From positions 65,357-129,356 of the forward strand of contig JBMORU010000001.1 of assembly GCA_049322215.1 (NCBI GenBank): a stretch of DNA of 64,000 bases, given 5' to 3'. Shown here in pieces: positions 4,136 through 49,727 of this stretch. Below the pieces are notes generated by a model. It saw only the letters and a list, made by a program, of their open reading frames with translations, was not told the origin of the DNA and ran no database searches. The stretch's first letter is position 1; the number at the start of each line of letters is the position of its first letter. Source of the DNA: Patescibacteria group bacterium. Its GTDB lineage: Bacteria > Patescibacteriota > WWE3 > UBA101185 > UBA10185. A program made the translations under genes and the position numbers.

Positions 4136-4315
4136 TTGTCACTCTCCTTTTGCATTTGTATATAACGTAATTGCCACAATCTTAGCACAGTTAAAAAAAA
4201 TCGCCCTTGTGTTGGCGATAAAAAACTTATGTATACAATTCCGGTTAGAATATAGTTATCCACTAGGTCATCGAAGAGACTGTGGGCACTTTGCTTACAC
4301 AAAACACGCACAGTC

Positions 4316-4428
<113 letters not shown>

Positions 4429-4614
4429 TTATATACATAAATTTTTAAACTGCTAATTAGATTAGCTCATGCGCCTTTTCTCGTTCCAAGAAAGCAACCA
4501 AAAAAGGCGAAAAAGCCAACCTAATTAAAATTTGCATTACGTAAATAGCAAAAAGTCGAGTGCTTTTTACCAATGGTAAAAAGCCGTAGAAACTTTAACA
4601 CATAAACATTGTTT

Positions 4615-7640
<3,026 letters not shown>

Positions 7641-7912
7641 AGAGAATACGCAATTTATATTCAGAGAACACAAATCACGGTATATATTAAAGTCTCGTTG
7701 ACTTTTTACCTTAGTTTTAAAACATAAAGTAAAAAGCGTTTGAGTGACTTTTTGCTATTTGCCTAATGCAAATAAAGAATAAGTCATTTATTCTATATTA
7801 AGTTTACAAAGTACCTCTTTTTACAGAGTCAAAGTTAAAAACTTAATAAACTATATTAAGTTCTTAAATTTAACTACGTACCCAAATTTACAAGCTAAGC
7901 TATGCGATAACT

Positions 7913-7989
7913 TGGTGGACCCGACGGGAGTCGAACCCGTGACCTCCGCAGTGCAAATGCGGCGCTCTAGCCAACTGAGCTACAGGCCC
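7913..7989 (-). tRNA. tRNA-Ala (anticodon TGC), CCA encoded, G3:U70 identity pair present
   Basis: Reverse complement GGGCCTGTAGCTCAGTTGGCTAGAGCGCCGCATTTGCACTGCGGAGGTCACGGGTTCGACTCCCGTCGGGTCCACCA folds as a cloverleaf. Anticodon loop is TTTGCAC. Confidence 0.9.
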
Positions 7990-8201
7990 TCGCCTGTTTA
8001 GTTAAAATATTAATGTTAAGTTGGAATTAAGAGCTTCCGTCAAAAAGCTTTAAACCCGAAAAATCGAGTAGAAGGTAAATTCCCATTCCGTAGGAGTAAA
8101 TTATCACTTTGAGTAAACAATGTCAATAAAATTAATGGGTCTAAAGTTTATAGCAAAAAACTAAAAACTTTAAACCCAAATGTGTCAGAAATGGTTATTG
8201 A

Positions 8202-8588
8202 CTACGCAAGAACAAGCTTACCGTGCCGAGAACTTTTAACAGTATAAGTTTTGCCGCACAAGTGCACAAGCTCCCCTTTAGAAATGTGTGCCATTCCGTA
8301 AACAGTTTGCGCACCACCGCTACCACCAACTTGAACAGAATACTGGCTGTAACCGTTTGAACTTCGAGTATGCAACTGAACTGGCCCCTTATAGGACTGA
8401 AGCTGCAATGACCGACGATCAGTAAAACGCACCCAAAAAGTATCTCCATCGTAAGTTACTGAGTCACCATAGTTTAAACGTTTTGGTCCAAACAATGCTG
8501 TGGGGAGTTTTACGCCATCAACATAAACGTTATTGTACTTTTTTTGCTGACCATTACCTTGCCCTGTCAAAGTATCTTTCTTAGACAT
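8202..8588 (-). CDS. hypothetical protein (128 aa) embedded in the 16S-23S spacer
   Basis: ORF preceded by a strong SD (TAAGGAGAGACA-ATG, reverse complement of 8589-8603). Gly/Ser/Tyr-rich with no family recognised. Locally GC-richer than the surrounding spacer. Confidence 0.55.
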   Translation of the reverse strand: MSKKDTLTGQGNGQQKKYNNVYVDGVKLPTALFGPKRLNYGDSVTYDGDTFWVRFTDRRSLQLQSYKGPVQLHTRSSNGYSQYSVQVGGSGGAQTVYGMAHISKGELVHLCGKTYTVKSSRHGKLVLA

Positions 8589-8747
8589 TGTCTCTCCTTA
8601 GATAAATATTGGGATTTGTAAATTTCCTATGTTATAGGGTAAGGGCTATGGTAAAACATTGTATTGGCGTTGTCAATTAAGCAAAAACTATTACATACTC
8701 TTTACATATTCATGTTAATATATTAAAACGTATATGCCCTTTAGTAA

Positions 8748-8824
8748 GGGCTCGTAGCTCAGTTGGTTAGAGCGCTCCTCTGATAAGGGAGAGGTCGATG
8801 GTTCGAATCCATCCGAGCCCACCA
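8748..8824 (+). tRNA. tRNA-Ile (anticodon GAT), CCA encoded, on the strand opposite to the rRNA genes
   Basis: GGGCTCGTAGCTCAGTTGGTTAGAGCGCTCCTCTGATAAGGGAGAGGTCGATGGTTCGAATCCATCCGAGCCCACCA gives a clean cloverleaf with anticodon loop CTGATAA. Confidence 0.9.
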
Positions 8825-8861
8825 AGCTGTAAATCCACTAAACAAGTTAATATAAAACTTT

Positions 8862-8886
8862 AAAAAAAAGAGCACCGGAGTGCTAA
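8862..8886. terminator. Bidirectional hairpin terminator between tRNA-Ile (+) and the NUDIX gene (-)
   Basis: aaaaaaaag-AGCACC-gga-GTGCT-aacttttattt. The GC hairpin is flanked by an A-tract on one side and a T-rich tract on the other. On the minus strand it reads hairpin followed by TTTTTTTT. Confidence 0.5.
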
Positions 8887-8889
8887 CTT

Positions 8890-9303
8890 TTATTTGTTGT
8901 TAATAAATTCTAAAACAGGAGAAGCTAGATCGTAATAGACAAAATTAGAAAATAAGTCAGGTTCTACCCATCTAAACTGTTCAACTTCAGAAGTATCAAT
9001 TAACAATGTATATGCTTCAGACACTAGAGTACAAGCAAAGTAATGCAATACTACTTTTTGTGAGGGAATAATAATTTCATGAATTTTGCGAACTACCGAA
9101 ACTTCATGTCCAGTTTCTTCGTATGCTTCACGTACTGCTGCCTCTTCATGAGTTTCATCATCATAAACTTTACCCCCAGGAAATGTCCAGGAGAGTCTAT
9201 TTTCTAACCCATGTAATGAGGGATCATAGCGTTTTACTAACAAAACGCTGCCTGTAGGGTTTTTAACTACAGATAAAGCTACTTGTGTTTGATTATCTTC
9301 CAT
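8890..9303 (-). CDS. NUDIX hydrolase
   Basis: 137 aa with a Nudix box GGKVYDDETHEEAAVREAYEETGHEV (GX5EX7REUXEEXGU). Confidence 0.8.
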   Translation of the reverse strand: MEDNQTQVALSVVKNPTGSVLLVKRYDPSLHGLENRLSWTFPGGKVYDDETHEEAAVREAYEETGHEVSVVRKIHEIIIPSQKVVLHYFACTLVSEAYTLLIDTSEVEQFRWVEPDLFSNFVYYDLASPVLEFINNK

Positions 9304-9570
9304 AAATTATCTTAATTTCTATATCGTTTACACTTAGCGCTTCAAGGAATAATAAGCAAAAAGAATGTCTCATTTAAGGGTTTAGGCTCACCCTTGAACC
9401 TGCTCATCCAACCCCGTGAGGGGGGTGGTGTACAACTACTACCTATGAGCTGCTCGATAGTAGCGTATGTTTTTTCTTTCATCGGTCTTTTTAAGACACA
9501 CTGTCAAACACAAAGGATTGACCATCTTAAAAAGGTTCCGCGATCAAAAACATAATATTCTTTCTCTTTA

Positions 9571-11035
<1,465 letters not shown>

Positions 11036-11116
11036 AAACATTCTTTTTGCTTGCCATTCCTCGAAATAACAAGCATTCTTGAATACTAAGTAATATTAAA
11101 AAATCAAAGAGCAAAT

Positions 11117-11175
11117 CAGATTATACTGAGATTCACGCTTCCCGCAAGATACCAATAAATAAGATAATAGTCAAC
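11117..11175 (-). promoter_or_regulatory. Putative sigma70-type promoter(s) for the 16S rRNA gene
   Basis: On the minus strand, TTGCGG-16nt-TATAAT (plus-strand 11142-11147 and 11120-11125), about 80 nt upstream of the 16S 5' end. A second TTGACT-17nt-TATCTT lies just upstream (11146-11174). Confidence 0.35.
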
Positions 11176-11266
11176 AACTCACTACTTATTAGTTTCAGCG
11201 TAGTATCTACTATAAATAGAATTTAGATAATTGCAAATTTATCTATGTTTAAGGTAACTATTAAGA

Positions 11267-13618
11267 ATGCAAAAAGCGATCGTAGTTTCTATGCTCATTA
11301 TTACATTTTTCTCTATAAATACAAGTAAAGCTTTTGGACAAGAAATAATACCTACTACAGAAAATGGCTTTTACATTACCTCTGTCGAAATTACACCTTG
11401 GGGAATTATGAGTGGAGAATTTGATCAACGCGCGTGGAAAAACCCTTTTAATGGCATAAAAATTTCAAAAGATAAAGGCGTCTCCTGGACAGCGTCAGGA
11501 CTAAAAAATAGAGGTATTACAGATTTACACTACCAAAACGGTATTATATATGCAGCTACATACTATTTTGTAGAACAAGAAGCCGGTCTTTTTGTATCTT
11601 ACGATGCAGGAATAAACTGGACACATTTAGGGAACAACTTTTCAACTACAAAAGTAACTACAAGCAACGACACTATTTACCTAGGAACATATAGCCATGG
11701 GCTATGGAAGCATAGCAACGCAACAGGGTGGAAACAACTCATTGGCGATGGTTACTTTGGCCCTAAAATAACCCTCATAAAAGCAAAAGACAGCTACATA
11801 GTTGCACAAACATCGGTAGGTGTTTATGAATCAAATGATTTTGGAGAAACCTGGACAGTACCAGAAGTTTTTAAACAAACTACTATAAACGACGTTATCT
11901 TTATAGACGAGTTAACTATAGCTGCTACTAAAACTGGAATTTATACATCATCAGATAAGGGTATTACGTGGAATAAACAAAACAGTTTGAATGAAAAAAA
12001 CATAACAACATTATTCGCAACACCCAAACACATGTACGCCAGTGTTGAACAAAAACCTAATGAATTTGAGCTTTTGGTATCTTTAAACTCAGGAACTACT
12101 TGGAATAAATTTGCAACATTACCCATAAACAAGCCAAATGCCATAAAAGACATGACTTATATGTTTTCATTTCCATCAAAAATATATTTTGTGAGCCAAA
12201 CAAACGGAATATTTTACTTTTTAGAAGAATCAAACAACATAAAGGAGCCTTTGCTTAGAATTCCATGGCACTATAAAAAAGAATCTGAACTTGTCTCAAC
12301 TATAACATCTTATTTTGATCACGAATATCCATTCTCCGGGTATAAATACTACACAGAACCACCAGCTGTTAATGCAACAACTGTAAATTATCTTGGACAA
12401 AGAGCCAGAGAACCAATTTTATACTATAGTAAACACGATGGTGTGGATTTTGCACTGCCTTACGGTACTGAAATTGTAGCGGCACATTCTGGGCAGGCAA
12501 CTTATGCGTACGAAGAAAATGGTTTGGGTCATCATATAAATGTAGTCAGCGAAAACGGATTTCAAACTACATATGCACATATGCAAGAAAGTGGTTTAGC
12601 CACTAAAACAACTACTTGGATTGAAGAAGGAAATAAAGTTGGATTAGTAGGACTAACAGGAAAAACTACAGGACCCCACTTACACTTTGCAGTAACATAC
12701 GACAAAAATGAAAATGAAAACTTTACTGATAATGAAACAAATGGAAAAACAGATCCTTTTGGATGGCAAACACCGTTTTATGCTGATCCATGGGCAACAT
12801 ACACCTGGTTGGATAGTTTAGGTACCCATAACGGCATGGAAAGCTATTATATGTGGAAAAACAACCTACCAAAAAGCACTTTTAATATTACTAACAATTT
12901 GCAAAATATCACGCACGAAAACATAAGTATGCAGCTTCCTGAAAACTTTACACAACACGAAATCACTATTTCTATTCAAAACCATTCGATACCTGCAGTA
13001 CCACCTGAAAAAAACAAACTTGTTTATATAACAGGAACATCCTTTTTACTTAATGCCTACAACAACTTAGGGCAAGAACCTCCCGAGTTTTTAAAGCCTG
13101 TTCGAATTGAAATTGACTTTAGTGAAGCTGATTTACAAAACATTTTGCTGAATACACTTAGTATTTACTACCTAAATGACTCAACAAACAGTTGGGAAAA
13201 AGTTAACTCAGTATTAGATTTAGTAAACAAAAAACTTACAGCAGAAACTTCCCACTTTTCAAACTATGCTGTTTTTGCTGAAAAAATAGATTATGACGCC
13301 CCAAATACAATCATTGCAGTAATAGGTGCAAAAACAGGAAACTGGTTTACACAGTATCCAACTATAGAACTTAGTTATAATGATGCAGACGTTAACTATG
13401 TGTTTTATAAATTAAACAACGAAGTTACTTGGCGTGAGTATAGTGAACCATTTGAACTACAAAAAGAAGGAATAAATAAAATAGAATATAAGGCGGTAGA
13501 TGGCAACAACAACTGGGAAAATGCACACGACATTGTTATACCTATAGATACGAAAAATAAATGGAAAGATACTTCCAAGGTCTCAGAAATAGTAGTTGGC
13601 ACTGAAACTCAAAATTAA
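11267..13618 (+). CDS. Secreted BNR/Asp-box repeat protein fused to an M23 (LytM-type) metallopeptidase domain
   Basis: 783 aa with a signal peptide (MQKAIVVSMLIITFFSINTSKAFG). At least five S-x-D-x-G-x-T-W BNR repeats (SKDKGVSWT, SYDAGINWT, SNDFGETWT, SSDKGITWN, SLNSGTTWN). M23 motifs HDGVDFALPYGTEIVAAHSG and GPHLHFAV. Confidence 0.75.
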   Translation: MQKAIVVSMLIITFFSINTSKAFGQEIIPTTENGFYITSVEITPWGIMSGEFDQRAWKNPFNGIKISKDKGVSWTASGLKNRGITDLHYQNGIIYAATYYFVEQEAGLFVSYDAGINWTHLGNNFSTTKVTTSNDTIYLGTYSHGLWKHSNATGWKQLIGDGYFGPKITLIKAKDSYIVAQTSVGVYESNDFGETWTVPEVFKQTTINDVIFIDELTIAATKTGIYTSSDKGITWNKQNSLNEKNITTLFATPKHMYASVEQKPNEFELLVSLNSGTTWNKFATLPINKPNAIKDMTYMFSFPSKIYFVSQTNGIFYFLEESNNIKEPLLRIPWHYKKESELVSTITSYFDHEYPFSGYKYYTEPPAVNATTVNYLGQRAREPILYYSKHDGVDFALPYGTEIVAAHSGQATYAYEENGLGHHINVVSENGFQTTYAHMQESGLATKTTTWIEEGNKVGLVGLTGKTTGPHLHFAVTYDKNENENFTDNETNGKTDPFGWQTPFYADPWATYTWLDSLGTHNGMESYYMWKNNLPKSTFNITNNLQNITHENISMQLPENFTQHEITISIQNHSIPAVPPEKNKLVYITGTSFLLNAYNNLGQEPPEFLKPVRIEIDFSEADLQNILLNTLSIYYLNDSTNSWEKVNSVLDLVNKKLTAETSHFSNYAVFAEKIDYDAPNTIIAVIGAKTGNWFTQYPTIELSYNDADVNYVFYKLNNEVTWREYSEPFELQKEGINKIEYKAVDGNNNWENAHDIVIPIDTKNKWKDTSKVSEIVVGTETQN

Positions 13619-14673
13619 AAGGTAATAACACCACCACCAATTACCAAGTCTTTTTTGTAAACTACAGCACTTTGACCTTCAGCAACACCAAATACAGGTT
13701 TTGCTAGTTTAATTGTCCAAACCCCATTATTTTCTTCAAGAGTACCTTTATGAAACTCACCTAAATGCCTAATTCTTATTAAATATTCACCACCTTCAAT
13801 AGGTCTTTCATTTATCCAATGCGAGTCTTTTATGTTAAATATGTCAAACTTACAATCCTCTTTAGTTCCAACAACAATTTGATTTTTGGGTACAATTTTT
13901 TTGACCACATATAAAGGCGCACCGTGATAAGTTTTTGTGCTAAATCCGTGTCTTTGACCAATTGTGTAAAAAGGTATTCCATCATGCTCTCCAATTACAT
14001 TACCTTCTAAATCAAGTACCTCACCTTTTTTCTCTTTAATGCGCTTTTTTAAAAAGTCAGATATTTTTACTTCGCCAATAAAACAAATACCCACGCTGTC
14101 GGGCTTATCAAAAGTATGGAGTCCTACCTTTTCTGCTGTTTTTCGAACTTCTTCTTTTTTTAACGCGCCAAGAGGAAACAGCGTTTTTTCTAATACATGT
14201 TGCTCAAGCAAATACAAAAAGTAAGACTGATCTTTGCTATCATCAACCCCCTTTAATAAATCACCATTTTGAGAGCGTGCGTAATGCCCTGTTGCCACAT
14301 AATCAAACTCATTTTCTATAGCCCAATCAAAAAACAAACCAAACTTAATTTCTTTATTGCACATTACATCGGGGTTAGGAGTACGACCTAATTCATACTC
14401 TTTGTAAAAGTAATCAATGACTCTATTTTTATAAGCTTCAATAAAATCTAAATATTCAAACTTTATACCAAGTTTAGAAGCAACTTTCACCGCATCAGCC
14501 CTATCTTCGTCGGCTTTACAACCATCTGCTTTGGAATCCCAACATTGCATATAAATTCCGGTTACATCGTAACCTTGCTCTTTTAATAAATATGCAGCAA
14601 CAGAAGAATCAACCCCACCACTGAGGCCAACTGCAACTTTTATTAAAGTATTTGCATTTTGTGCTTTCATCAA
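13615..14673 (-). CDS. mnmA: tRNA-specific 2-thiouridylase MnmA
   Basis: 352 aa. PP-loop VAVGLSGGVDSSVAAYLL, conserved CWD/CNKEIKF motifs. Confidence 0.85.
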   Translation of the reverse strand: MMKAQNANTLIKVAVGLSGGVDSSVAAYLLKEQGYDVTGIYMQCWDSKADGCKADEDRADAVKVASKLGIKFEYLDFIEAYKNRVIDYFYKEYELGRTPNPDVMCNKEIKFGLFFDWAIENEFDYVATGHYARSQNGDLLKGVDDSKDQSYFLYLLEQHVLEKTLFPLGALKKEEVRKTAEKVGLHTFDKPDSVGICFIGEVKISDFLKKRIKEKKGEVLDLEGNVIGEHDGIPFYTIGQRHGFSTKTYHGAPLYVVKKIVPKNQIVVGTKEDCKFDIFNIKDSHWINERPIEGGEYLIRIRHLGEFHKGTLEENNGVWTIKLAKPVFGVAEGQSAVVYKKDLVIGGGVITF

Positions 14674-14701: not shown

Positions 14702-15187
14702 TTAAGGTAAAGAAATATCACATTTAGCAGCAGCTACCGTCATAACTTCGATTTCTTCTTTTATTATGCCTAAGGCTTCATCAAAACTTAATTTTCTATA
14801 GTTATGCGGAAAATAGTGAAAAACCTGATTTCTACCCTTTTTCCATACTTGCCAAAGTTTATCGGTAACGTCAGCGCCCCCTTTATCGTGTAAACATAGC
14901 TTTTGATAAATAGAAGTGTGTTCTTTCATAAACATGGGGTTTAAAATGCGCCCTATTCTTATTGAATCACCATAATATTCATCTTCTTTTATTAAATCTA
15001 AATCAAGAAAAAGTTGCTTTAAAAAGCCTTCATAAGCTTTTGAAAAAGGAAATACCAAAAAGGAGTAATCAGAAACACTTTTAAAGTGTACAACGTCGGT
15101 GAGCAATTGTTCCCCATCGAGTATTAGTTCTCTTTGATCTTCAGCCAAGTACTGCCAAAGATGTGATTTTTTATCTACTACTTCCAC
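14702..15187 (-). CDS. hypothetical protein (161 aa) with a C-terminal R-x4-H-Y motif (HEPN-like?)
   Basis: ORF, predicted mostly helical. GRNQVFHYFPH near the C-terminus resembles the Rx4-6H HEPN signature. This is a weak assignment. Confidence 0.45.
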   Translation of the reverse strand: MEVVDKKSHLWQYLAEDQRELILDGEQLLTDVVHFKSVSDYSFLVFPFSKAYEGFLKQLFLDLDLIKEDEYYGDSIRIGRILNPMFMKEHTSIYQKLCLHDKGGADVTDKLWQVWKKGRNQVFHYFPHNYRKLSFDEALGIIKEEIEVMTVAAAKCDISLP

Positions 15188-20556: not shown

Positions 20557-21831
20557 TTACTCTAAAGCCCCAGTATCAGTATAAATACCGAAATCATAAA
20601 GCGAAGGAAGTCCTGGGAAACGTCTATAAACTGTAACTGACTTAGTTGGCTGATCCCCCGCAACGTCATTTGTTATACTTCCCGTCGAAGTTATTTTATA
20701 CCCTTGAACAGGCAACCCATTGGAATCTTGCGTAGGAAACAAAACCATTTTTGCAGATTCATTAATAGTGCGTAATCTTAAATGGGTTATGTTGTTATCC
20801 ATAGTAATTATATGCCCATCGTAATTTTCGTACCCAACATGGTTGCAAGTACTTGCACTTTCAAAGTTATTTTCATAATCAATTGGAAATCTATTTATGC
20901 GATCGTTACTTGCAACACCATTTTTTTCCATTTCTACAGGCAACTCTGGTAGAGTTATATCTAATTTTCCAACAATATTTACATCATTAATCAATAAGTC
21001 TTCTTGAGTTCCAGAAAAACACTCGGCAGCAGGATACTGGGCTTGTTTTGTAGTATTAAAAGATCCTGATGAAATGTAAAAGGTGACATCCTCGCTGGCA
21101 ATGCTTGATACAGAAGTTGGGAGTTCCCAATATATAGATTCGCCGGGTAAAACCGCTTGCTCTTGCCCATCAATACCTAAAGACTCAACGCTTGCTATTA
21201 CATCAAATTCACAGCTAGCTTGGTTTGAATCAAAGTTCACAAAAGAGGCATATACAATACCATTTCCGTCTGCAGTGCATGCAGAAGAAGCCCAATAGTC
21301 CACAAAACATCCAGAGCGTATTTCTGTACCAACGTCATTTGCTGAATAAGAAGTATAGTACAAATCACTACCGTTGTTTGTATTAACTGACTGCCAACAC
21401 ACCTCTATAGAATTAGAAGCATAAGAGCCCATGCGTACATCATACGTTTGGCCATTTTCAGCAGTAAAATCAAAACCATTTGGGTACTGAGTACTACCAA
21501 AATAATCAACAGTAACTGAAGCATTAGTAAAAATAGGATCTGTAGAACTTTGTCCGGAACTGTAATCAATTACTGTAACATCTCCGGAATCTGCTAACGT
21601 TGCAAGCTCATTAAAAGGGCGAACTAAAAAGTTTTCTATTCCACCTTCGGCTGCGGCCAAAACACGCGCAGAAGTGTCAGTGTTTGTTACTCTAGAAACA
21701 GTGGACAATGTGCGTAACGAAATACCAACACCTAAAGCTAAAGCTATAACCATAACCGCTACAGCAAAGGCAAGAGCCTGTCCTTTTTCATTATTCACTA
21801 ATTTATTATTTTTCATTTTCCGTACTCCCAA
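20557..21831 (-). CDS. Secreted Cys-containing protein with a prepilin-type (class III signal-like) N-terminus; putative minor pilin or adhesin
   Basis: 424 aa. N-terminus is a K/N-rich leader, then G, then a hydrophobic helix (NEKGQALAFAVAVMVIALALGVG). Ser/Thr/Asn-rich extracellular region with paired Cys. Confidence 0.5.
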   Translation of the reverse strand: MGVRKMKNNKLVNNEKGQALAFAVAVMVIALALGVGISLRTLSTVSRVTNTDTSARVLAAAEGGIENFLVRPFNELATLADSGDVTVIDYSSGQSSTDPIFTNASVTVDYFGSTQYPNGFDFTAENGQTYDVRMGSYASNSIEVCWQSVNTNNGSDLYYTSYSANDVGTEIRSGCFVDYWASSACTADGNGIVYASFVNFDSNQASCEFDVIASVESLGIDGQEQAVLPGESIYWELPTSVSSIASEDVTFYISSGSFNTTKQAQYPAAECFSGTQEDLLINDVNIVGKLDITLPELPVEMEKNGVASNDRINRFPIDYENNFESASTCNHVGYENYDGHIITMDNNITHLRLRTINESAKMVLFPTQDSNGLPVQGYKITSTGSITNDVAGDQPTKSVTVYRRFPGLPSLYDFGIYTDTGALE

Positions 21832-23771
21832 GTTAAACCTTCTTGAAATAAACCAGAATAATTTCTGTTTAAATTATCTTCACTTAACTCCTGTTTTACT
21901 AACTGTAGGTAGTAATAAGGATTATACTTCACAACTTCCACAGGTAATTCGTTTCGTGCACGTCCATCACGTGCAAAAATCACAGTACCCTCTTTAGATA
22001 TTAAAGGACTTTCTACAATAATTGGTAAATCAAAAATTATGTCAGCGTCATTAGCCCCTAATTGACTACTAAAAACTATATTTCCATTAACAATAAAAGA
22101 GGCCTCTATATTAGGTCTTGTGGTGGGTAAGGGATAAATAGTGTTTAAAGTAGAATCAAATATAACCGATCTGCTTACTACAAATATAATGCGCTGATAT
22201 GGAGAAACAGAATGTATGTTTTTATTTATATTCAAGTCACCATCTGTAACATAAATTACTACAACACCATTTTTCGATAACGAATAAGTTGCGGTTTCTG
22301 AAGCACCGTTTAGTGCACCTTCTATACAAGAGGAACTAGCTTTATAAGCGCGCATAGGGTTAAGCTTTTCATCTTCCTTGTTTGTGCTAAACATAGTATT
22401 ACAACTAATACCAAGTTCGTTATCTTCAATGCTTATTGCACCAACTGGGGGCTTAAAATTATATGAAGTAGGCCATGTAGCAACTTGAGATCTAATATTT
22501 TTCTGGTATCTATTATTGTCTTCGGAGTAACGGTCTTCGCCGTCGGGATTAACTACACTCAAATCTCTATTGCCAAATACTGTGCCTATCTGCTGTATTA
22601 AATAAGTTTTAAACGTATCGGTACCTAATACAATGTCTGAAGGAATTTCTGCATCTACACTGTGGAAACAATCAGAACAACCCCCATATATATCTCCAAA
22701 TAAAGAGGTAAACCACCCTGTAGATACAAGTTCGTAACCTAAGTTAATATTTTCAGACAAATCGTCTATATCTTTAATAGCACAGGCACTGGTTTGTACA
22801 CCGGAATCACTATTATCCACACATTTTAATCTATAAAAAGCATTTGGAGTGCTAGTTGGCGTTGAAACACTTCCACAAATAACACTATTATCTGCAATTG
22901 GAACATTGTTTATTTCATAACTGTAACCGCTAAAATCATTAGGATCCCAAGTACCATAAATATTTGGATCTCCTGAAACGAAAACTTCTACACCATCTTC
23001 TACATCATTAGGTTGAATTTCTAGAGAATTCTTGTCAGTGTCAGATATATTACAAGAGCTATCAGTGGCATCCCAAATTAGTCCTCTAATACGTGACAAG
23101 GAAGCAGAATCAGCGCAGTATGGAGTGCCTATAACTTTACCTTTAACTAGTCTATAGCTGTCGCTATACCAATTAATACCGGGTTCACCGTCGGGGTATG
23201 AAAACGGATTTACAGAAGGGCCTATGTGAACATCTGCCTGAATTCTACACAAACTGTCCGCGTCATCGGGTAAAAACAGTTCAAACGATGTTGATTCCCC
23301 AGGAGCCAACAATACCAAAGGTGTTTCCTCAACAAAACGCTGTAAGTTTAATCCTTCCATAGGGTCACCTCCTGCAGGTATTTCATAATAGGTTAAGCCA
23401 ACCCAATACCAACAGTTGTAAATAGTGTTGTTTTTGGCAGTACCAAATATAGAACCGCCGGTTTTAAAATCTACTGATAATGTTCCTGTAACTTCTTCTA
23501 CTCTCTTGTTTTCTTTCATATCACATATTTTAAATTGAGAGCTTTGAGTAGATGATAAATCGGGTAAGTAAGTGCGATTCACATCGTTAGTGTAATCATG
23601 GTTATCTATGATGGTATCTAACTTTATGCTTTCTGCTTGTGTGTCTGTAATAAATTCGTAGTCGTTGGTAGTTTGAGCCAAAACAGAAGAAGTGAAAAAA
23701 GAAACATAAACCAAGCCAAGAATTAAGGAATTAGAAATCGTAAAAATTATAGGCCTAGGAACAGAATTCAT
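21813..23771 (-). CDS. Large secreted hypothetical protein (652 aa), Cys-rich
   Basis: Signal peptide MNSVPRPIIFTISNSLILGLVYVSFFTSSVLAQ. No family recognised. Overlaps the downstream gene by 19 nt, implying an operon. Confidence 0.55.
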   Translation of the reverse strand: MNSVPRPIIFTISNSLILGLVYVSFFTSSVLAQTTNDYEFITDTQAESIKLDTIIDNHDYTNDVNRTYLPDLSSTQSSQFKICDMKENKRVEEVTGTLSVDFKTGGSIFGTAKNNTIYNCWYWVGLTYYEIPAGGDPMEGLNLQRFVEETPLVLLAPGESTSFELFLPDDADSLCRIQADVHIGPSVNPFSYPDGEPGINWYSDSYRLVKGKVIGTPYCADSASLSRIRGLIWDATDSSCNISDTDKNSLEIQPNDVEDGVEVFVSGDPNIYGTWDPNDFSGYSYEINNVPIADNSVICGSVSTPTSTPNAFYRLKCVDNSDSGVQTSACAIKDIDDLSENINLGYELVSTGWFTSLFGDIYGGCSDCFHSVDAEIPSDIVLGTDTFKTYLIQQIGTVFGNRDLSVVNPDGEDRYSEDNNRYQKNIRSQVATWPTSYNFKPPVGAISIEDNELGISCNTMFSTNKEDEKLNPMRAYKASSSCIEGALNGASETATYSLSKNGVVVIYVTDGDLNINKNIHSVSPYQRIIFVVSRSVIFDSTLNTIYPLPTTRPNIEASFIVNGNIVFSSQLGANDADIIFDLPIIVESPLISKEGTVIFARDGRARNELPVEVVKYNPYYYLQLVKQELSEDNLNRNYSGLFQEGLTWEYGK

Positions 23772-32221: not shown

Positions 32222-33217
32222 TTATTGCCCACTAACGCAGAAAGGCGTGTATTGTAGCCCATTTTGCGCGTACAGCCATTCGGTAAAAGACAACTGTGCA
32301 TTTTGCTCTTGTGCTTGTTTAAAGGCTTGAGCGTTTTCAGTGCCAATCCAGCGCCAATGCCAAGTTTCTGCATTTACGCCAGTTTTGCACTCATCACCCA
32401 TAGGATAAGGCATTACAAACCCAAACAAATGAGCATTGCTCTGCAAAAAATTTCCGGCAGGGCTTTGCGCAAAATCATTGGTCCAACCCGCAGCACCATT
32501 AAAATCTTCAATGCAAACGCCACTACTACAGTAGTTTGTAGTGAAATCTAACGCCAAACCAGTATGGTGCTCGGTATGCCCTGGACGCAGCGAGTATTCA
32601 TCTGCCAATGGATCTAGTCCAAGCCAGTACTCGTAAGCTGTTCTCTGACGTTCAACCCCACGGCAAGCTGTGCGCAAAGCCAGGTCAATTCCTTGTTCCT
32701 TGGCAGCGGTTACCAGCGCAGTCAAATCGGGAAGCATATCGCTTACAATATACTGTGCATCCAAAACCTCGCGAATACCTGTAGCAGATGCAGGCTGTAA
32801 ATGCGCTGCAACCGACAGGTCACCGTCAGGACATTGAATTTGCTCAGGAGTTAAACGATAATGTCGATCAACAACAATCAAACGAAAGTCGTTTACATAA
32901 ACCGAGTCCTGCACAGCATCAGGGTAACGCGCCCATTCTGTAAGTGTGGGTGCTGTGATGCTGTCTACCGTAGATGAAGTATCTGCAGGCAACTCATTAG
33001 TGCTATTTTCTGCAGAAATACTGTCACCTTCAACAACAAGGGTTGGTGTAGCAATGGCAAGGGTTTTTTTACTTTCTCCCATAGGTGCAACTAAAGTTTC
33101 CTCTTCACTTCCTGGAAACTCAGGCGCCGATAGAGAAGATAAAACAAAGCGTCCCACTAAAACCACGACTACAATGCCCACTAAAATCGCGACATGTTTT
33201 GCTTTCAAGTATTTCAC
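32222..33217 (-). CDS. Membrane-anchored D-alanyl-D-alanine carboxypeptidase-like zinc peptidase (M15/VanY, LAS superfamily), GC-richer
   Basis: 331 aa. N-terminal TM, S/T/E-rich linker, then PGHTEHHTGLALDF (H-x6-D metal site) and a later H. Confidence 0.6.
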   Translation of the reverse strand: MKYLKAKHVAILVGIVVVVLVGRFVLSSLSAPEFPGSEEETLVAPMGESKKTLAIATPTLVVEGDSISAENSTNELPADTSSTVDSITAPTLTEWARYPDAVQDSVYVNDFRLIVVDRHYRLTPEQIQCPDGDLSVAAHLQPASATGIREVLDAQYIVSDMLPDLTALVTAAKEQGIDLALRTACRGVERQRTAYEYWLGLDPLADEYSLRPGHTEHHTGLALDFTTNYCSSGVCIEDFNGAAGWTNDFAQSPAGNFLQSNAHLFGFVMPYPMGDECKTGVNAETWHWRWIGTENAQAFKQAQEQNAQLSFTEWLYAQNGLQYTPFCVSGQ

Positions 33218-35187: not shown

Positions 35188-36273
35188 ATGTATGGAGCAA
35201 TAATCTCTTTAGCAATAGCAATAAGTGTTTACGTCGCAGAAAAGTATTTTCTGCGAAAAAAAATGTCCCCTGAAATAATGTGGGAAGGATTGTTTTGGGG
35301 CATATTAACAGGTTTAGTTGGTGCCCGATTATTTCACGTAATAAGTTTATGGTCTTTTTACGAAGTAAACCCTACCTTAATTATTCAGTTTTGGCAGGGT
35401 GGCCTAAATATATTTGGCGGAATTTTAGGATTTTTAGTAGCTATTTCACTTTATTTAAAAAGTAAAAAGCAAAAGGTTTTACCCTGGTTAGATGTAGCAG
35501 CACAAGTAACACCTTTAGGTCAGGCTTTGGGTAGATGGGCAAACTATATTAATAAAGAAATTTATGGCCCCGAAACAAACCTGCCTTGGGGAATAAACAT
35601 TAACGGCTATAAACATCACCCACTTTTTCTATACGAAATGATACTAGATTTATGGCTATTTTCCTTGCTTATTTTAATAAAAACCAAAGTTAAAAAAGTA
35701 AAGAAAGGCACATTTTTGTATGTATATTTGGCAGGATACTCCACAATTAGAATTCTTCTTGAAGATTTCAGACTGCAAAAATGGGAATGGAGAAGCCTAA
35801 ATATTACAAATACAATTGCTCTTGTATTAATTGTATATGCTGGAACAATGTTGTTTAAAATATATAGAAAAAGACTCAATGTAAAGCTTATATTTAAAGC
35901 TCTAGCAACCACAGGAATTATAATTTCTTTATATCTAACTTATACAAAAATAAGTGGCGTTGAACCCTTATGCGGAGTGGGAACTTGCGAAATAGTTCAA
36001 AATAGTAGATACGCAACAATGCTTGGAATTCCAACAGCACTATACGGAGTGTTTTACTACATTGTTTTTTATATTTTGGCAGAAAAAAGCTTAAACAAAC
36101 AATTGTCCCTACTAATTCTTGTGGGACTTATCTTTTCAGCCTACTTAGCTTATTTAGAACTGTTTATTATTAATGCTTTCTGTAAATGGTGTGTAGGCTC
36201 TTTATTAGTAATACTATTAGCTTCGGGAATTCAGTACATAAGAATTAAGTATGATAATATTCATAACAGATGA
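35188..36273 (+). CDS. lgt: Prolipoprotein diacylglyceryl transferase (Lgt) fused to a C-terminal vitamin K epoxide reductase (VKOR) domain
   Basis: 361 aa. Lgt signature GQALGRWANYINKEIYGPETNLPWG. C-terminal VKOR motifs CGVGTC...NSRYATMLGIPTALYG and an active-site CKWC within a TM helix. Confidence 0.75.
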   Translation: MYGAIISLAIAISVYVAEKYFLRKKMSPEIMWEGLFWGILTGLVGARLFHVISLWSFYEVNPTLIIQFWQGGLNIFGGILGFLVAISLYLKSKKQKVLPWLDVAAQVTPLGQALGRWANYINKEIYGPETNLPWGININGYKHHPLFLYEMILDLWLFSLLILIKTKVKKVKKGTFLYVYLAGYSTIRILLEDFRLQKWEWRSLNITNTIALVLIVYAGTMLFKIYRKRLNVKLIFKALATTGIIISLYLTYTKISGVEPLCGVGTCEIVQNSRYATMLGIPTALYGVFYYIVFYILAEKSLNKQLSLLILVGLIFSAYLAYLELFIINAFCKWCVGSLLVILLASGIQYIRIKYDNIHNR

Positions 36274-41350: not shown

Positions 41351-42406
41351 ATGGATTTTTTAAAAAGAAACTTTCCAGTACTGTTTTTACTGTCTATAAC
41401 AATATTAATTTTTGCTGGAATAATTATAGCTTCAAAAGATGAAACAAATACAGATGCACCTTCTTTAGAAGTTGCTAGTACATCAAAGTTGGTGCCTGCA
41501 CACGCCTACACCTTAGGTAACCCAGAGGCAGTAGTAACAATAGTAGAGTTTTCAGATTTTCAATGCCCCGCTTGTAAAACAGCAGCTCCTGTAGTTAAGA
41601 CACTTCTTAGAAAGTACGATGGCGATGTGAGACTAGTTTATCGTAACTTCCCTCTTCCACAACACAGAAACGCTGAAATGGCTGCAATAGCAGCACAAGC
41701 AGCAGGACAACAAGGAAAGTTTTGGGAATATCACGATGTTCTTTTTGCAAATCAGGACAAACTAAGAGAACAGGATCTTGTTAAATATGCAGACGATTTA
41801 GAGCTTGATGTAGCGCAATTTGAGCAAGATCTTAAAAATGAAATATTCGAAAACGTAATAGCTGAAGATATTAGAGATGCACGAGCTATAGGAGTTTCTT
41901 CCACACCTACTTTTTATGTAAACGGTGAAAAAGCAGAATTAAGAGCATTCACAGACCTAGAAACTTTAATAATTCAGGCTATTGAAAAAGCACGTACTGA
42001 TGAAAATTCTGATGAGGAAACAGAAGAATCCACAAGTACTACTTCTTTAGGACAACCATCGGTAGCTTCTGTAACTAAAGAATTAGGCCCCGCAGAAATT
42101 GATGCAGTGTTCGGCTCTGTAAATATATCCTTTTCGGAAAATACCGGATTTGAACCTGTAGAACCCTCGGTAATGCTGGGACAAAAGGTGGTTTGGACTA
42201 ACGCTAGCGACAAAACAATTACCTTAAAGCAAAATAAAGATTTATTTAGCGAGTTTGAGTCAACAATTCAAATTCCTGCAGGAGAAACCTTTGAATTTAG
42301 ACCATATACTAAAGATCTTTGGGTCTATGAAGAAGTTGAATCTGGGTTAAGGGGAAGCATGCTAATAAAAGATGCAATCGAATTCACAGTAGCGCCAAAT
42401 CAGTAA
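41351..42406 (+). CDS. Membrane-anchored DsbA-like thiol:disulfide oxidoreductase with a C-terminal beta-rich extension
   Basis: 351 aa. N-terminal TM and a thioredoxin fold with FSDFQCPACK. About 130 aa of additional C-terminal domain. Confidence 0.7.
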   Translation: MDFLKRNFPVLFLLSITILIFAGIIIASKDETNTDAPSLEVASTSKLVPAHAYTLGNPEAVVTIVEFSDFQCPACKTAAPVVKTLLRKYDGDVRLVYRNFPLPQHRNAEMAAIAAQAAGQQGKFWEYHDVLFANQDKLREQDLVKYADDLELDVAQFEQDLKNEIFENVIAEDIRDARAIGVSSTPTFYVNGEKAELRAFTDLETLIIQAIEKARTDENSDEETEESTSTTSLGQPSVASVTKELGPAEIDAVFGSVNISFSENTGFEPVEPSVMLGQKVVWTNASDKTITLKQNKDLFSEFESTIQIPAGETFEFRPYTKDLWVYEEVESGLRGSMLIKDAIEFTVAPNQ

Positions 42407-43144: not shown

Positions 43145-44176
43145 TTATTCATTGGTTTCGTAAGGAACAACCTTAACCCAAATACGCGAATCCGGATTGG
43201 CAAAGTTTGTGAAAGGCACGGCGTTAACGTAGGTGGAACCGAGTTGCAATACATCTACAACGTTGCCCACATTCCCTGCATCGTCTGTATGAAAGCCGTA
43301 CACCGTAACCGCTAGTGCGTAACAACCGCCTTGAGGTTCAATGGCCTGCACGTTAATTTTGATGTTATCACTAGCTTCAGTTCCCCAGCGAATAGGGTTT
43401 GCAACAATTGGGTCAGAACTGAGCAAAGTAACACCAAAACCTAAACCACCCCAACTTGGCGAAATTGGCGAATGCGGATTATGCCAAGCCACCTTACCAT
43501 TAGGTACAATGCATGTTTCAGACATTGGAACCTCGGCAGGAGCCTCCGCATAGGAACATAAAGCGCTCGAACCAACAAAAAGCTCTTCTACGGTAGCTAC
43601 ATCTTCAAGAGACCAATCGTGGTATGTACGTGCTTCGGCAATCCAACCTGTAAGGGCAATACCGACGGCACCGGTGCCATTGATTTGGGTTTCTTCCGCG
43701 GTAATGTGTAGCATGCCGTCTACTGAGCGAGTCCACACGCGTACTTCTGCACCTTCGGGCACATAGTACTTAGTAGCATCATCGGTAGAAGCACCACACA
43801 CCGAACCATTGCGGCTGTGCGAAAGATAAACAACAGCATTTTCAGTAATTGTTGCAGTGTGCGTGGAAGTTATCACACTAGCAATAGAAACCCCATCAAG
43901 TTCGGTTAAATCCGTATCTTCTTCAGCGGTGGTTTCAGGCTCCGGAGTAACTTCAACAATACGCGTTACTTCTACTTCCTCATAAATTAGCGTAACGGGA
44001 ATTTCACCTTCTTCCGGGGCATCAATGACCACTCGCGTTACCTCAACTTGACGCACCACAACTGGCGCATTGGTTTTGGAAATTAAGGATAAACCTAAAA
44101 CCAAGTTCCCCAATAGCGAAACCATTAGCAACACCGCAAAAACCAGCGCAGCTGTTTTCCAATATTTAGTTTGCAT
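43145..44176 (-). CDS. Secreted/membrane-anchored hypothetical protein (343 aa), GC-richer
   Basis: Signal anchor, then an E/T/V-rich linker. No family recognised. Distinct composition. Confidence 0.5.
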   Translation of the reverse strand: MQTKYWKTAALVFAVLLMVSLLGNLVLGLSLISKTNAPVVVRQVEVTRVVIDAPEEGEIPVTLIYEEVEVTRIVEVTPEPETTAEEDTDLTELDGVSIASVITSTHTATITENAVVYLSHSRNGSVCGASTDDATKYYVPEGAEVRVWTRSVDGMLHITAEETQINGTGAVGIALTGWIAEARTYHDWSLEDVATVEELFVGSSALCSYAEAPAEVPMSETCIVPNGKVAWHNPHSPISPSWGGLGFGVTLLSSDPIVANPIRWGTEASDNIKINVQAIEPQGGCYALAVTVYGFHTDDAGNVGNVVDVLQLGSTYVNAVPFTNFANPDSRIWVKVVPYETNE

Positions 44177-48169: not shown

Positions 48170-48246
48170 TGGTGCCAACGGGTGGAATCGAACCACCGAC
48201 CTGACGCGTATGAAACGTCCGCTCTAACCGACTGAGCTACGTTGGC
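48170..48246 (-). tRNA. tRNA-Met (anticodon CAT), elongator-type acceptor; could alternatively be a lysidine-modified Ile2
   Basis: Reverse complement GCCAACGTAGCTCAGTCGGTTAGAGCGGACGTTTCATACGCGTCAGGTCGGTGGTTCGATTCCACCCGTTGGCACCA. Anticodon loop TTCATAC. Pairing 1G:72C. Confidence 0.8.
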
Positions 48247-48318: not shown

Positions 48319-49569
48319 TTAAAACTTAGGAAAATTATCACGCAAACTATTTAGCAAAAAGGTATTAAACTCGGCACTAGCTAAAATTAAAACTTTTGAT
48401 AACGCTGGTAACCTTTTTTTGTCGAAGGCATCTAAAAGTAACAAATAGGCAAAAGGCAAAAAATCTAAAGTGTATCGAGGGCCAAGTTGAACCCAACCCG
48501 GCCAATAATAAGTAAGTAAAAAAGCTAAAACAAACAAAACAGATAATAAGGACTTAAGATTTTCCTTTTTTTTATAGTTAACTTTAAGCAAATATAAAAA
48601 TATAGGCGATACTACAAAAAAACTTGTTCCAGGATAATTAACTTTGAAGTACGGATATTTCAAAATGAAGGTATTACCAAATAAAGTTTCTTTCTCTAAT
48701 AAAATTGGATCTATGCTTTTCAAAAAATAATAGTAAAAATTTGTTGGAATATTGCGTAGTTGAAATAAACCATAGTTAATTTGCTCAAAACGGGCATCAT
48801 CATTCATAGTCACTTCATTACTGGTGTAGTAGCCATTGTCAAATGGGTTTTGAAATCTCGCGTAGTTGTAGCTTAAAAGCAACAATCCAGATAAAACTAC
48901 AGGTAGAATTAACATGACTATATCCTTGAATTTTTTGTCAAAAGAGTATTTGCTTAAAAAAATCGAAAGAACAAAGAAAATTACTGTAAAACCAGCAGTA
49001 AATCTAGACATAAATATAAACCCGTAAAATAAACCAATTAACCAATATCTCTTTTTACTTTTATATTCATAAATTGCTAAAAATTGAAATAAAACGGCAA
49101 TCGCTTGCACAAAATTCCAGCTCCATGGAATATAAGCCACAACAACATAAACGCTAGAGAAAATAAAAGCAAAAGCCAAATATATTGAATCATATAATTT
49201 GTAACCAAACTTCATAGCTAAAGATAAGCAAAGCAAAAAAATACCAAAAGTCAAAAATACCTGTAGATAACCTTGCAGAAATAAGGAATCAGCAAAAGCA
49301 TCCCAAAGGCCAACAAAGGGCATTAAAAGCAATGCAGGAAAAGGAGCTAAATGCCAAAACAGTTTACCGTCAAAAAAAACAATATCTTGTAGCCCACCTG
49401 GAATTTCTAAAAAACTTAATGATCCGGCCAAAAAGGCACGGGCTAAATAAGAGTACTGATTATTTTCTACATAGGTAAAATTAGTAATAATCACTTGAAC
49501 AAATTTACCTAATGAAAGTATCAAAATTAATACACCCCAAACACTGGTGGGTAGTTTTATCTTGTACAT
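48319..49569 (-). CDS. Polytopic membrane protein, putative GT-C-fold glycosyltransferase (ArnT/PMT-like)
   Basis: 416 aa with 10+ TM helices and an aromatic-rich composition. The family assignment is tentative. Confidence 0.4.
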   Translation of the reverse strand: MYKIKLPTSVWGVLILILSLGKFVQVIITNFTYVENNQYSYLARAFLAGSLSFLEIPGGLQDIVFFDGKLFWHLAPFPALLLMPFVGLWDAFADSLFLQGYLQVFLTFGIFLLCLSLAMKFGYKLYDSIYLAFAFIFSSVYVVVAYIPWSWNFVQAIAVLFQFLAIYEYKSKKRYWLIGLFYGFIFMSRFTAGFTVIFFVLSIFLSKYSFDKKFKDIVMLILPVVLSGLLLLSYNYARFQNPFDNGYYTSNEVTMNDDARFEQINYGLFQLRNIPTNFYYYFLKSIDPILLEKETLFGNTFILKYPYFKVNYPGTSFFVVSPIFLYLLKVNYKKKENLKSLLSVLFVLAFLLTYYWPGWVQLGPRYTLDFLPFAYLLLLDAFDKKRLPALSKVLILASAEFNTFLLNSLRDNFPKF

Positions 49570-49653
49570 AAATACTATATTAACCTAATATAATTGGATT
49601 TAAAAAACTTCTTTGGTTGCGGGGCCCGGATTTGCACCGGGACCTTCAGATTA

Positions 49654-49727
49654 TGAGCCTGACGAGGTACTATTCCTCCACCCCGCGTCGTTAAGTAAAG
49701 AATGCATATTACAATGCGTGGGTAGTG
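49654..49727 (-). tRNA. Initiator tRNA-fMet (anticodon CAT), C1:A72 mismatch, CCA encoded
   Basis: Reverse complement CGCGGGGTGGAGGAATAGTACCTCGTCAGGCTCATAATCTGAAGGTCCCGGTGCAAATCCGGGCCCCGCAACCA. It closely parallels the E. coli tRNA-fMet ends (CGCGGGGTGGAG...CCCCGCAACCA). Confidence 0.85.

Follow-up and report, generated by a model that had tools for sequence, protein, structure and literature searches.

A WWE3 propeller-M23 peptidase with a predicted self-cleaving MAIN-type domain as a candidate releasable surface endopeptidase

Little is known of how the ultra-small Patescibacteria, also called candidate phyla radiation (CPR) bacteria, attach to their hosts and exploit them, and the WWE3 lineage among them is without a cultured member. 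Here, we describe a WWE3 gene whose product joins a cell-wall-cutting enzyme to a predicted self-cleaving, force-separable domain of the kind used by adhesion G-protein-coupled receptors (GPCRs) for mechanosensing. The gene is the open reading frame (ORF) at 11267..13618 on the forward strand of the 64,000-nucleotide stretch that we analyzed (hereafter the window), and it codes for a protein of 783 amino acids (aa) and 87 kDa. By sequence inspection, Pfam matches, and an AlphaFold2 (AF2) model, its domains follow one another as signal peptide, propeller, M23 peptidase, MAIN-type (Microbial Autoproteolysis INducing) domain, Ig-like domain, and tail. We read the protein as a releasable, self-nicked surface peptidoglycan endopeptidase that carries a swappable targeting module and would be directed at a foreign wall, and we would give this reading about an even chance of being right.

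An earlier note on this DNA, made from the sequence alone, had proposed a targeted lytic enzyme in which an Asp-box propeller and an M23 domain precede about 300 residues of unknown nature. The idea of a targeted lytic enzyme is consistent with all of our findings, and the length of the region C-terminal to the M23 domain is borne out. That region is no longer a blank, however: it contains a GAIN/ZU5-like (MAIN-type) domain with an HFS motif and an Ig-like domain. Because the C-terminus holds a predicted self-cleaving domain together with an Ig-like domain, we have re-read the mechanism as that of a self-nicked, releasable surface enzyme. The identical protein is annotated in the database as "peptidoglycan DD-metalloendopeptidase family protein" (Patescibacteria group bacterium), which overlooks both the propeller logic and the predicted autoproteolytic domain.

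More than 120 full-length homologs exist, about 770-820 aa long and at 32-42% identity; the conservation counts given below cover 120 that we retrieved and aligned with hmmalign. Those with a name are from WWE3 (Katanobacteria), from Patescibacteria, or from metagenome-assembled genomes (MAGs) labelled Saccharimonadales or Saccharibacteria. The parts of the gene are as follows:

11267..11335, + strand: Sec-type signal peptide, aa 1-23, with predicted cleavage between SKA and FG, judged by inspection
11345..12274, + strand: 7-bladed Asp-box (BNR) beta-propeller, aa 27-336 (AF2 model, Foldseek, Pfam BNR)
12248..12421, + strand: M23 N-terminal extension, aa 328-385, the start of the conserved M23-to-C-terminus segment (BLASTP against P0182, a relative described below)
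12422..12712, + strand: Peptidase M23 (LytM-type) catalytic core, aa 386-482 (Pfam PF01551)
12713..12856, + strand: M23 C-terminal extension, aa 483-530 (invariant alignment columns)
12857..13294, + strand: GAIN-B/ZU5-like (MAIN-type) beta-sandwich, aa 531-676, with a fold of the GAIN-B/ZU5 type
13253..13261, + strand: H663-F664-S665, predicted autoproteolytic site, with the cut expected between F664 and S665
13295..13546, + strand: Ig/FN3-like beta-sandwich of the CHB_HEX_C/OmpL47 type, aa 677-760, a candidate retention or anchoring module
13547..13615, + strand: conserved C-terminal tail, aa 761-783 (family alignment)

The C-terminal region holds a MAIN-type domain with a predicted autoproteolytic site

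Domains of the GAIN-like MAIN type occur widely across both bacteria and archaea (Brogan & Rudner, bioRxiv 10.64898/2026.05.12.724683, 13 May 2026). According to that preprint, Bacillus subtilis YfkN is cut between the F and the S of an HFS sequence, as established by Edman sequencing, and the substitution S1346A abolishes the cut while an S-to-T change restores it. The same work reports that MAIN fragments stay associated and that the ectodomain can be released, for which the authors propose force as the trigger. The usual architecture that they describe runs from a signal peptide through adhesion or enzyme domains to the MAIN domain and a surface anchor.

Because Foldseek searches with the full-length protein were dominated by propellers, we modelled aa 483-783 apart from the rest. 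In the AF2 models, the HFS motif (the translation of 13235-13294 is LTAETSHFSNYAVFAEKIDY) occupies the turn that joins the penultimate strand of the sandwich (656-661) to the last one (666-673), and the modelled topology of this turn is that of the GPS site. The stretch T-x-H663-F/L-S665-x-F-A-V-F-G is the best-conserved feature of the sandwich, with His663 found in 103/120 homologs, Ser or Thr at 665 in 118/120, and H-[FL]-[ST] in about 100; a Trp upstream of the motif (W643) occurs in all 120. Several GAIN/ZU5-type families are autoproteolytic, and ankyrin-type ZU5 domains are not. The known cuts fall between L and T of H-L-T in the GPS motif of GAIN domains, between F and S of H-F-S in PIDD, and between F and S of S-F-S in NLRP1. 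By analogy with these sites, we infer that the domain described here may cut itself between F664 and S665.

A search at the sequence level with Pfam at E <= 1, covering the protein and 23 C-terminal homolog segments, returned no GPS, ZU5, or GAIN match and only CHB_HEX_C_1 in 4 of the 23; likewise, a HMMER profile of the C-terminal 300 aa met a single chance match only among PDB sequences. With a HMMER profile of aa 531-680 (alignment A3, 23 homologs), we searched 1.84 billion representative proteins and obtained 8586 matches at E <= 1e-3, of which 875 had E <= 1e-10 and 48 had E <= 1e-30. Among these was an adhesion GPCR of the fish Tachysurus vachellii (XP_060742127.1, E = 2.3e-29), in which Pfam recognizes five GPS motifs and a 7tm_2 domain. 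On each "NHMTLFAVF" site of the receptor, the alignment places the profile's "nHlSeFavf", and the conserved Trp of the profile falls on the GPS Trp; singly, the GPS repeats are marginal at 20-31 bits each, and the strength of the GPCR match is the sum over them. The profile also matched a bacterial beta-helix protein (E = 3.3e-9), in which the matched region is Pfam ZU5 and is followed by a type IX secretion system (T9SS) sorting domain, as well as very large surface proteins with the domain close to the C-terminus. Apart from the GPCR score, relatedness to GPS and ZU5 domains is supported independently by the overlap with ZU5 and by the fold matches.

P0178, a bacterial beta-helix (NosD) protein of 1653 aa from a Logan contig, has two tandem MAIN/ZU5-like domains, both with HFS, and then a T9SS Por_Secre_tail. 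There, the type IX secretion sorting domain would stand in place of the usual MAIN surface anchor.

The sandwich could instead be a non-cleaving spacer or binding domain, which would leave the protein a secreted lytic enzyme of one chain, as in the earlier note. Cleavage is absent from many ZU5 domains (ankyrin) and from several GAIN domains, 17 of the 120 homologs are without the His, Pfam GPS and ZU5 do not match directly, and no anchor is present that would give release a meaning. We nevertheless think this improbable, since conservation in the domain is highest at H-x-S/T followed by x-F-A-V, the motif lies in the very turn where GPS and MAIN sites are located, and nearly all of the MAIN domains tested by Brogan & Rudner (bioRxiv 10.64898/2026.05.12.724683) were autoproteolytic.

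Relatives carry the same segment behind different N-terminal modules

BLASTP aligned aa 328-780 to residues 382-835 of P0182 with 33% identity (E = 3e-58). The alignment starts exactly where the propeller ends (PLLRIPW here, PFLDLPF in P0182) and spans the FDHxYP motif, the M23 core, the DPxGW...DPW pattern, the HFSxFA motif, and the Ig-like domain, while the propellers do not align. One of the P0182 contigs is from a groundwater metagenome, and a prepilin-type gene adjoins the P0182 gene.

We sampled the architecture of 16 A3-profile matches from outside the WWE3 family and found M23 directly upstream of the MAIN-like region in 14, the other two being CarboxypepD_reg proteins; the adhesion GPCR and the beta-helix protein with ZU5 are not part of this sample. 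The N-termini of the fourteen include a Kelch propeller (P0182) and RCC1 propellers (P0193, P0201), with no assignment for the rest. A homology search with P0182 added many more proteins of this kind and extended the range of N-terminal modules to Kelch, RCC1, LVIVD (PF08309), DUF1080 lectin-like (PF06439), and BNR_2, and the named carriers of these swapped architectures are Candidatus Levybacteria, "Patescibacteria group," and one Limnocylindrales (Chloroflexota) MAG. The same M23-to-Ig segment stands behind yet another N-terminal domain in the contig L014, where the motif reads NHLTHFALM. That one catalytic-plus-release segment carries interchangeable N-terminal modules is our main argument for regarding the propeller as a targeting module.

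Region 378-4253 of L014 encodes this protein, of 847 aa, in which M23, MAIN, and Ig-like domains come after a lectin-like N-terminal domain; the neighboring secreted protein has a TrbC/VirB2-like double-transmembrane segment at its C-terminus. L014 is labelled as an "uncultured Gammaproteobacteria" MAG, its gene content is Patescibacteria-like, and the bin label may be wrong.

The M23 module has its catalytic residues intact

The Pfam model Peptidase_M23 (PF01551) scores 75.3 bits over aa 389-480 (E = 4.4e-21; cut-off, 28.7), and the motif given in the earlier note, HxxxD...HxH, is found at 390-394 and 471-473. The zinc ligands (H390, D394, and H473) and the catalytic histidines (H438 and H471) align with those of NMB0315/NGO1686 and TagE, and all five are present in 120/120 homologs, which speaks against the inactive, LytM-like domain for which the note had allowed. 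In the PDB, the core matches NMB0315/NGO1686, TagE, ShyA, Csd3, zoocin A, and lysostaphin, best of all 3slu and 6muk at E = 1e-12. It is also the best-conserved part of the protein, with a mean identity across the family of 53% versus 32% for the propeller. Judged from these residues, the M23 domain would hydrolyze peptidoglycan cross-links. No NCBIfam equivalog cut-off was reached (MepM, 56 versus 341 bits; ShyA, 47 versus 700; DipM, 36 versus 900; Pgp3, 44 versus 300), so that the protein is not an ortholog of any named M23 enzyme and resembles them in the catalytic core only.

Both flanks of the core carry motifs of their own. The N-terminal extension contains the invariant F350-D351-H352-x-x-P355, with D351 and H352 in 120/120 homologs, and the C-terminal extension contains the invariant pattern D496-P-x-x-W500 ... 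D507-P-W509 ... W530. The first motif, as ITSFFDHEYPF, is also found in an M23 protein of Herpetosiphon giganteus and in L014, and the C-terminal extension is common to the Herpetosiphon giganteus protein, L014, and P0182. Possible roles for these motifs are as part of the substrate groove or as a latency element like that of LytM/Csd3. Separately, residue 428 (12548-12550), which lies outside the five catalytic and metal-binding residues, is Ser here and His in 118/120 homologs, and the family motif "IDHxNGYQT" reads "NVVSENGFQT" in this protein, a departure specific to its lineage.

We also looked for signs that the domain is a phage- or prophage-derived lysin, or a dead LytM-type amidase activator like EnvC, NlpD, or ActS, and regard either as extremely implausible. 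Phage M23 domains appear only as weak tape-measure matches (E = 5e-6), and we rejected a phage origin after a tblastn search of 50,697 phage records in which these matches, at E about 5e-6 and 18% coverage, were all that was returned and no record covered >18% of the protein. The gene has housekeeping neighbors (16S rRNA, mnmA, and a P-type ATPase) that are syntenic across genomes. As for an activator, ActS, EnvC, and SpoIIQ do occur, at the bottom of the match lists, but the catalytic residues are intact in all 120 homologs, unlike those of EnvC, NlpD, and SpoIIQ.

The Asp-box repeats are modelled as a seven-bladed propeller

The repeats that the earlier note had taken for a propeller are confidently predicted to form one. 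In an AF2 model built on 32 homologs (predicted local distance difference test [pLDDT] score, 87.4; predicted template modeling [pTM] score, 0.80), 28 strands in aa 37-330 make up 7 blades of 4 strands each, with a pLDDT of >90 over most of aa 40-280. Its claim of five or more Asp-boxes ahead of the M23 domain also stands: boxes of the form S/x-x-D/N-x-G-x-x-W occur at aa 67-74, 111-118, 189-196, 228-235, and 272-279, in blades 1, 2, 4, 5, and 6, while the box of blade 3 is degenerate and that of blade 7 is missing. When the protein was shuffled, a mean of 0.23 such motifs arose, with 0/5000 shuffles reaching five, and the commonest count among the homologs is six. Pfam BNR scored 29.6 bits against a cut-off of 27, and Sortilin-Vps10, BNR_6, and BNR_2 stayed below threshold. 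The best Foldseek matches in the PDB were the sensor propellers BT4673/BT4663, sortilin Vps10, and GH74, at E = 1e-13 to 1e-8. Asp-box propellers bind peptides and proteins too (sortilin, Ycf48), and carbohydrate binding by this propeller is an assumption.

Were the propeller itself enzymatic, as a glycoside hydrolase or sialidase-like domain, the protein would be a bifunctional hydrolase of wall glycans and peptides. GH74 enzymes are among the Foldseek matches, several propeller residues outside the Asp-boxes are near-invariant (E51, N62, Y95, and Q157), and there is a partial NCBIfam match, in three stretches, to the "F510_1955 family glycosylhydrolase"; its 63 bits, however, are far under the cut-off of 175. 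We rejected a GH33 sialidase, given that the propeller has seven blades rather than six, that BNR_2, at 17.6 bits, falls short of its cut-off of 31.4, and that no FRIP motif is present; a "RIP" at aa 331-333, considered as a candidate FRIP motif, is located after the propeller, and its Arg is not conserved. Furthermore, the non-homologous Kelch or RCC1 propellers of the relatives fit a binding role better than catalysis, and we hold an enzymatic propeller to be very improbable.

The protein ends suggest export and a candidate surface-retention module

The N-terminus consists of MQK, AIVVSMLIITFFS, and NTSKA, followed by FG. By inspection, it has the features of a Sec-type signal peptide (an n-region of MQK, a hydrophobic h-region, and small residues at -3 and -1), in agreement with the secretion that the earlier note had proposed. 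This stretch is the sole hydrophobic segment of the protein, the only one whose mean Kyte-Doolittle hydropathy exceeds 1.6, and the homologs have equivalent N-termini ending in sites of the type VYA before Q or E.

At the other end, residues 706-757 score 42.6 bits (cut-off, 40) with the NCBIfam model of an OmpL47-type Ig-like domain. The tail that follows has the pattern IDT-x-x-K-W/F-K, then alternating hydrophobic residues, and then a Phe (aligned to aa 777) that is present in 106/120 homologs and is Val in the window protein; the pLDDT of the tail is low, at 44-72. The tail could act as a signal for sorting or anchoring of a kind not yet recognized, or it could pair as a strand with some partner. 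The protein contains no LPXTG motif and no transmembrane or C-terminal hydrophobic segment, and an unrecognized surface anchor is possible.

The gene is inherited vertically at a conserved chromosomal position

In three long WWE3-type contigs, the homolog is convergent with mnmA, and a small RnlA-like ORF, GT1, fpg, recF, and ligase genes are close by. Given this conserved synteny, we conclude that the gene is inherited vertically within the lineage and is not a mobile or phage gene. In the window, the convergent mnmA overlaps the stop codon of the M23 gene by 4 nt (13615-13618), with no intrinsic terminator detected between the two genes. Beyond mnmA are a small RnlA/HEPN-like ORF, a P-type ATPase, a Na/Ca exchanger, a GT1 glycosyltransferase, fpg, a recF-like gene, and an ATP-dependent DNA ligase. 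On the upstream side, the 16S gene (9572-11036, -) is divergent from the M23 ORF, with 230 bp between them. An Rfam scan of this spacer found no regulatory RNA, and a promoter and terminator scan of 10900-13900 found sites no commoner than in shuffled sequence and no terminator. Six-frame ORFs of the 64-kb window, whose G+C content is 33-47%, contain no second M23 or MAIN-type domain.

A model for release, and the wall that it would act on

We propose that the protein, which its sequence suggests is exported by Sec, would be nicked by its own MAIN-type domain between F664 and S665 through an N-to-O acyl shift in which H663 would serve as the base. The fragments would then be held together, as homology to GAIN and YfkN suggests, by the last beta-strand (S665-K673), which would stay embedded in the sandwich. 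A C-terminal fragment of ~119 aa, comprising the Ig-like domain and the tail, would keep the complex on the surface of the cell; it is here that the model is weakest, since the protein has no known anchor motif. The propeller would bind a surface ligand, force or contact would separate the fragments, and the propeller-M23 ectodomain, thus released or handed over, could cut peptide cross-links in peptidoglycan.

The target is the least certain step of this model, and we judge the wall of a neighboring or host bacterium to be the most likely one because of the swappable N-terminal modules, the putative release device, and the host-dependent lifestyle of Patescibacteria. An own-wall target is in doubt because a complete WWE3 genome was reported to be without a complete identifiable peptidoglycan synthesis pathway (Kantor et al. 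2013). Soda-lake CPR, in conflict with that report, are all stated to have peptidoglycan synthesis (Vavourakis 2018). Among the Pfam-scanned ORFs of >=120 aa in the 64-kb window, which is part of a 1.11-Mb contig, we found no mur or penicillin-binding protein gene, with several short ORFs left out of the scan. The window does encode a second peptidoglycan-acting enzyme, a VanY-family D-Ala-D-Ala carboxypeptidase of 331 aa (32222-33217, -; Pfam E = 3.9e-24), which is relevant to whether the organism possesses peptidoglycan or scavenges it.

Several observations weigh against a releasable enzyme directed at foreign walls. The VanY gene, together with the sortases reported in WWE3 (Kantor et al. 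2013), suggests some own peptidoglycan, and no immunity gene is evident adjoining the locus. After the MAIN-type domain, neither Pfam nor sequence inspection reveals an LPXTG motif, an SLH or LysM domain, or a cell-wall-binding repeat. The His is absent from about 14% of the homologs (17/120), so cleavage may not be universal, and the Pfam GPS, ZU5, and GAIN models have no direct match to the protein. Both the enzymatic activity and the cleavage are predictions from sequence. Finally, the synteny, the single copy in the window, and the matches to housekeeping DD-endopeptidases (MepM, ShyA, and NMB0315) fit an autolysin equally well.

Such a housekeeping autolysin, in which M23 would cut the cell's own cross-links for growth or daughter separation, is an alternative that we take seriously even though we think it unlikely on balance. 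The propeller and C-terminal domains would then serve only to position or regulate the enzyme, and the MAIN-type nick, if any, would be a maturation step. The gene keeps the same chromosomal position across WWE3-type genomes with one copy in the window, its best NCBIfam and PDB matches are DD-endopeptidases of wall growth or shape (MepM, ShyA, Pgp3, DipM, and NMB0315), VanY and the WWE3 sortases imply an own wall, and reduced genomes tend to retain essential hydrolases only. However, housekeeping M23 enzymes with a large adhesion propeller and a GAIN-like release domain are not known, and the relatives have swapped the N-terminal module while keeping the segment from M23 to the C-terminus, a pattern typical of targeting diversification. 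The incomplete peptidoglycan pathway of WWE3 (Kantor 2013) also argues against this alternative.

A broader form of the release model, which we put forward as speculation and consider doubtful, is that proteins with a propeller or lectin followed by M23, MAIN, and Ig-like domains serve WWE3, Levybacteria, and related Patescibacteria as the device for breaching walls. They would be displayed pre-nicked on the episymbiont surface and equipped with a module that recognizes a particular host envelope, and mechanical pulling at the site of contact would part the MAIN fragments and hand over the active M23 enzyme to the host wall. If this were true, the N-terminal module would encode host range, and in WWE3 lineages without a full peptidoglycan pathway, the enzyme would act on foreign walls only and could also supply wall-derived nutrients. 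If the release model holds, these proteins could point to the host specificity of uncultivated episymbionts, and they would be a possible source of targeted lytic enzymes. The locus is a concrete candidate for CPR host interaction that can be tested by recombinant expression.

Other features of the window

The rRNA operon (4314-11036) is split and interrupted. Its 16S gene is 1465 nt long, compared with a model of 1533 positions, and its 23S gene (4615-7630) is 3016 nt long, compared with a model of 2925 positions, and may hold an insertion. Between the two lie a NUDIX ORF (8890-9303), a tRNA-Ile(GAU) on the opposite strand (8748-8824), an unassigned ORF (8202-8588), and a tRNA-Ala (7913-7989). 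An 82-aa ORF inside the 16S gene (10821-11069, +) is spurious. ARAGORN called a tRNA-Ile with a UAU anticodon, unusual in bacteria, with two tRNA(CAU) genes nearby (coordinates 51740-51815, 48170-48246, and 49614-49687, all -). In most bacteria, AUA is decoded by a lysidine-modified CAU tRNA.

The small ORF adjoining mnmA (14702-15187, -) has weak similarity to the RnlA-toxin DBD and to HEPN RNase LS, and an ORF of similar size occupies the same place in three other WWE3-type contigs. A Cys-rich, secreted-looking protein of 1111 aa (57559-60894, -) matches a GH5 cellulase domain weakly (E = 6.5e-8), and its long C-terminal part is unassigned; it contains no MAIN-type H-x-S/T motif. At 35188-36273 (+), Lgt (prolipoprotein diacylglyceryl transferase) is fused to a VKOR (vitamin K epoxide reductase-like) domain in one ORF, and a DsbA-like thioredoxin protein is encoded at 41351-42406. 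ORFs of 424, 652, 343, and 416 aa (20557-23771, 43145-44176, and 48319-49569, all -) have no Pfam match.

Comparison with known systems

The constituent parts of the protein are known families, and the MAIN domain itself was described months ago. The survey by Brogan & Rudner (bioRxiv 10.64898/2026.05.12.724683) drew on RefSeq Select, so that Patescibacteria MAGs fell outside its coverage, and its main text mentions neither M23 nor Patescibacteria. Among its about 15,000 MAIN proteins, the domain co-occurs with Peptidase_M23 in 31, with CHB_HEX_C_1 in 418, and with BNR_2 in 23, and one listed protein, Aureitalea marina WP_104812208, has Peptidase_M23, Ig, ZU5, and Glucodextran_B. Our literature search found no paper joining WWE3, peptidoglycan, and M23, and for Patescibacteria and M23 it found only copy numbers in a Gracilibacteria bin. 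Against the literature found, three things are new: the occurrence of a MAIN-type domain in Patescibacteria, to which MAIN domains are thereby extended; its place in a class-wide, syntenic BNR-propeller-M23 protein; and an M23-MAIN-Ig segment with swapped N-terminal modules that is widespread in Patescibacteria. The M23-MAIN pairing, seen in 31 of about 15,000 RefSeq proteins, is thus not rare, since in Patescibacteria it forms a conserved segment behind interchangeable modules.

YfkN and other MAIN proteins share with the protein described here a signal peptide, N-terminal ectodomains, a sandwich with H-x-S/T before the last strand, and a C-terminal module. The likeness to YfkN rests on motif, fold, and architecture as described, and HFS is the very motif that is cleaved in YfkN. 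In contrast to MAIN proteins, the protein here has no sortase signal, SLH domain, or cell-wall-binding anchor, and it is smaller, at 87 kDa versus their average of 158 kDa. The comparison extends to the GAIN-GPS region of adhesion GPCRs and polycystin-1, to ZU5 (ankyrin, UNC5, and PIDD), and to FIIND (NLRP1/CARD8), from which our protein differs in having no death domain. Unlike the GAIN domain proper of adhesion GPCRs, it has no helices in aa 483-783 (and hence no GAIN-A), no GPS disulfides (Cys pairs are absent near the motif), and no seven-transmembrane (7TM) region.

With the M23 endopeptidases NMB0315/NGO1686, ShyA, MepM, Csd3, TagE, zoocin A, lysostaphin, and LytM, the protein shares an intact H-x3-D, catalytic His, and H-x-H, but it is without their LysM, OapA, SH3b, or coiled-coil domains. 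We found the invariant flanking motifs FDHxYP and DPxGW...DPW only in this clade, in the Herpetosiphon protein, and in L014. An Asp-box per blade is common to this propeller and to those of sortilin/Vps10, GH74 xyloglucanases, BT4663/BT4673, and Ycf48, whereas the single 7-bladed propeller here is only 9-12% identical to the sortilin, GH74, and BT structures and falls below the thresholds of Sortilin-Vps10, BNR_2, and NF045728 ("F510_1955 family glycosylhydrolase").

The sister architectures, in which Kelch, RCC1, LVIVD, or DUF1080 modules precede M23, MAIN, and Big_13 domains, carry no annotation beyond "peptidoglycan DD-metalloendopeptidase family protein" or hypothetical protein. Their N-terminal modules are non-homologous to the propeller described here, and their C-terminal Ig-like extensions are often longer, but from the PxLxxPW junction to the Ig-like domain they are homologous to our protein.

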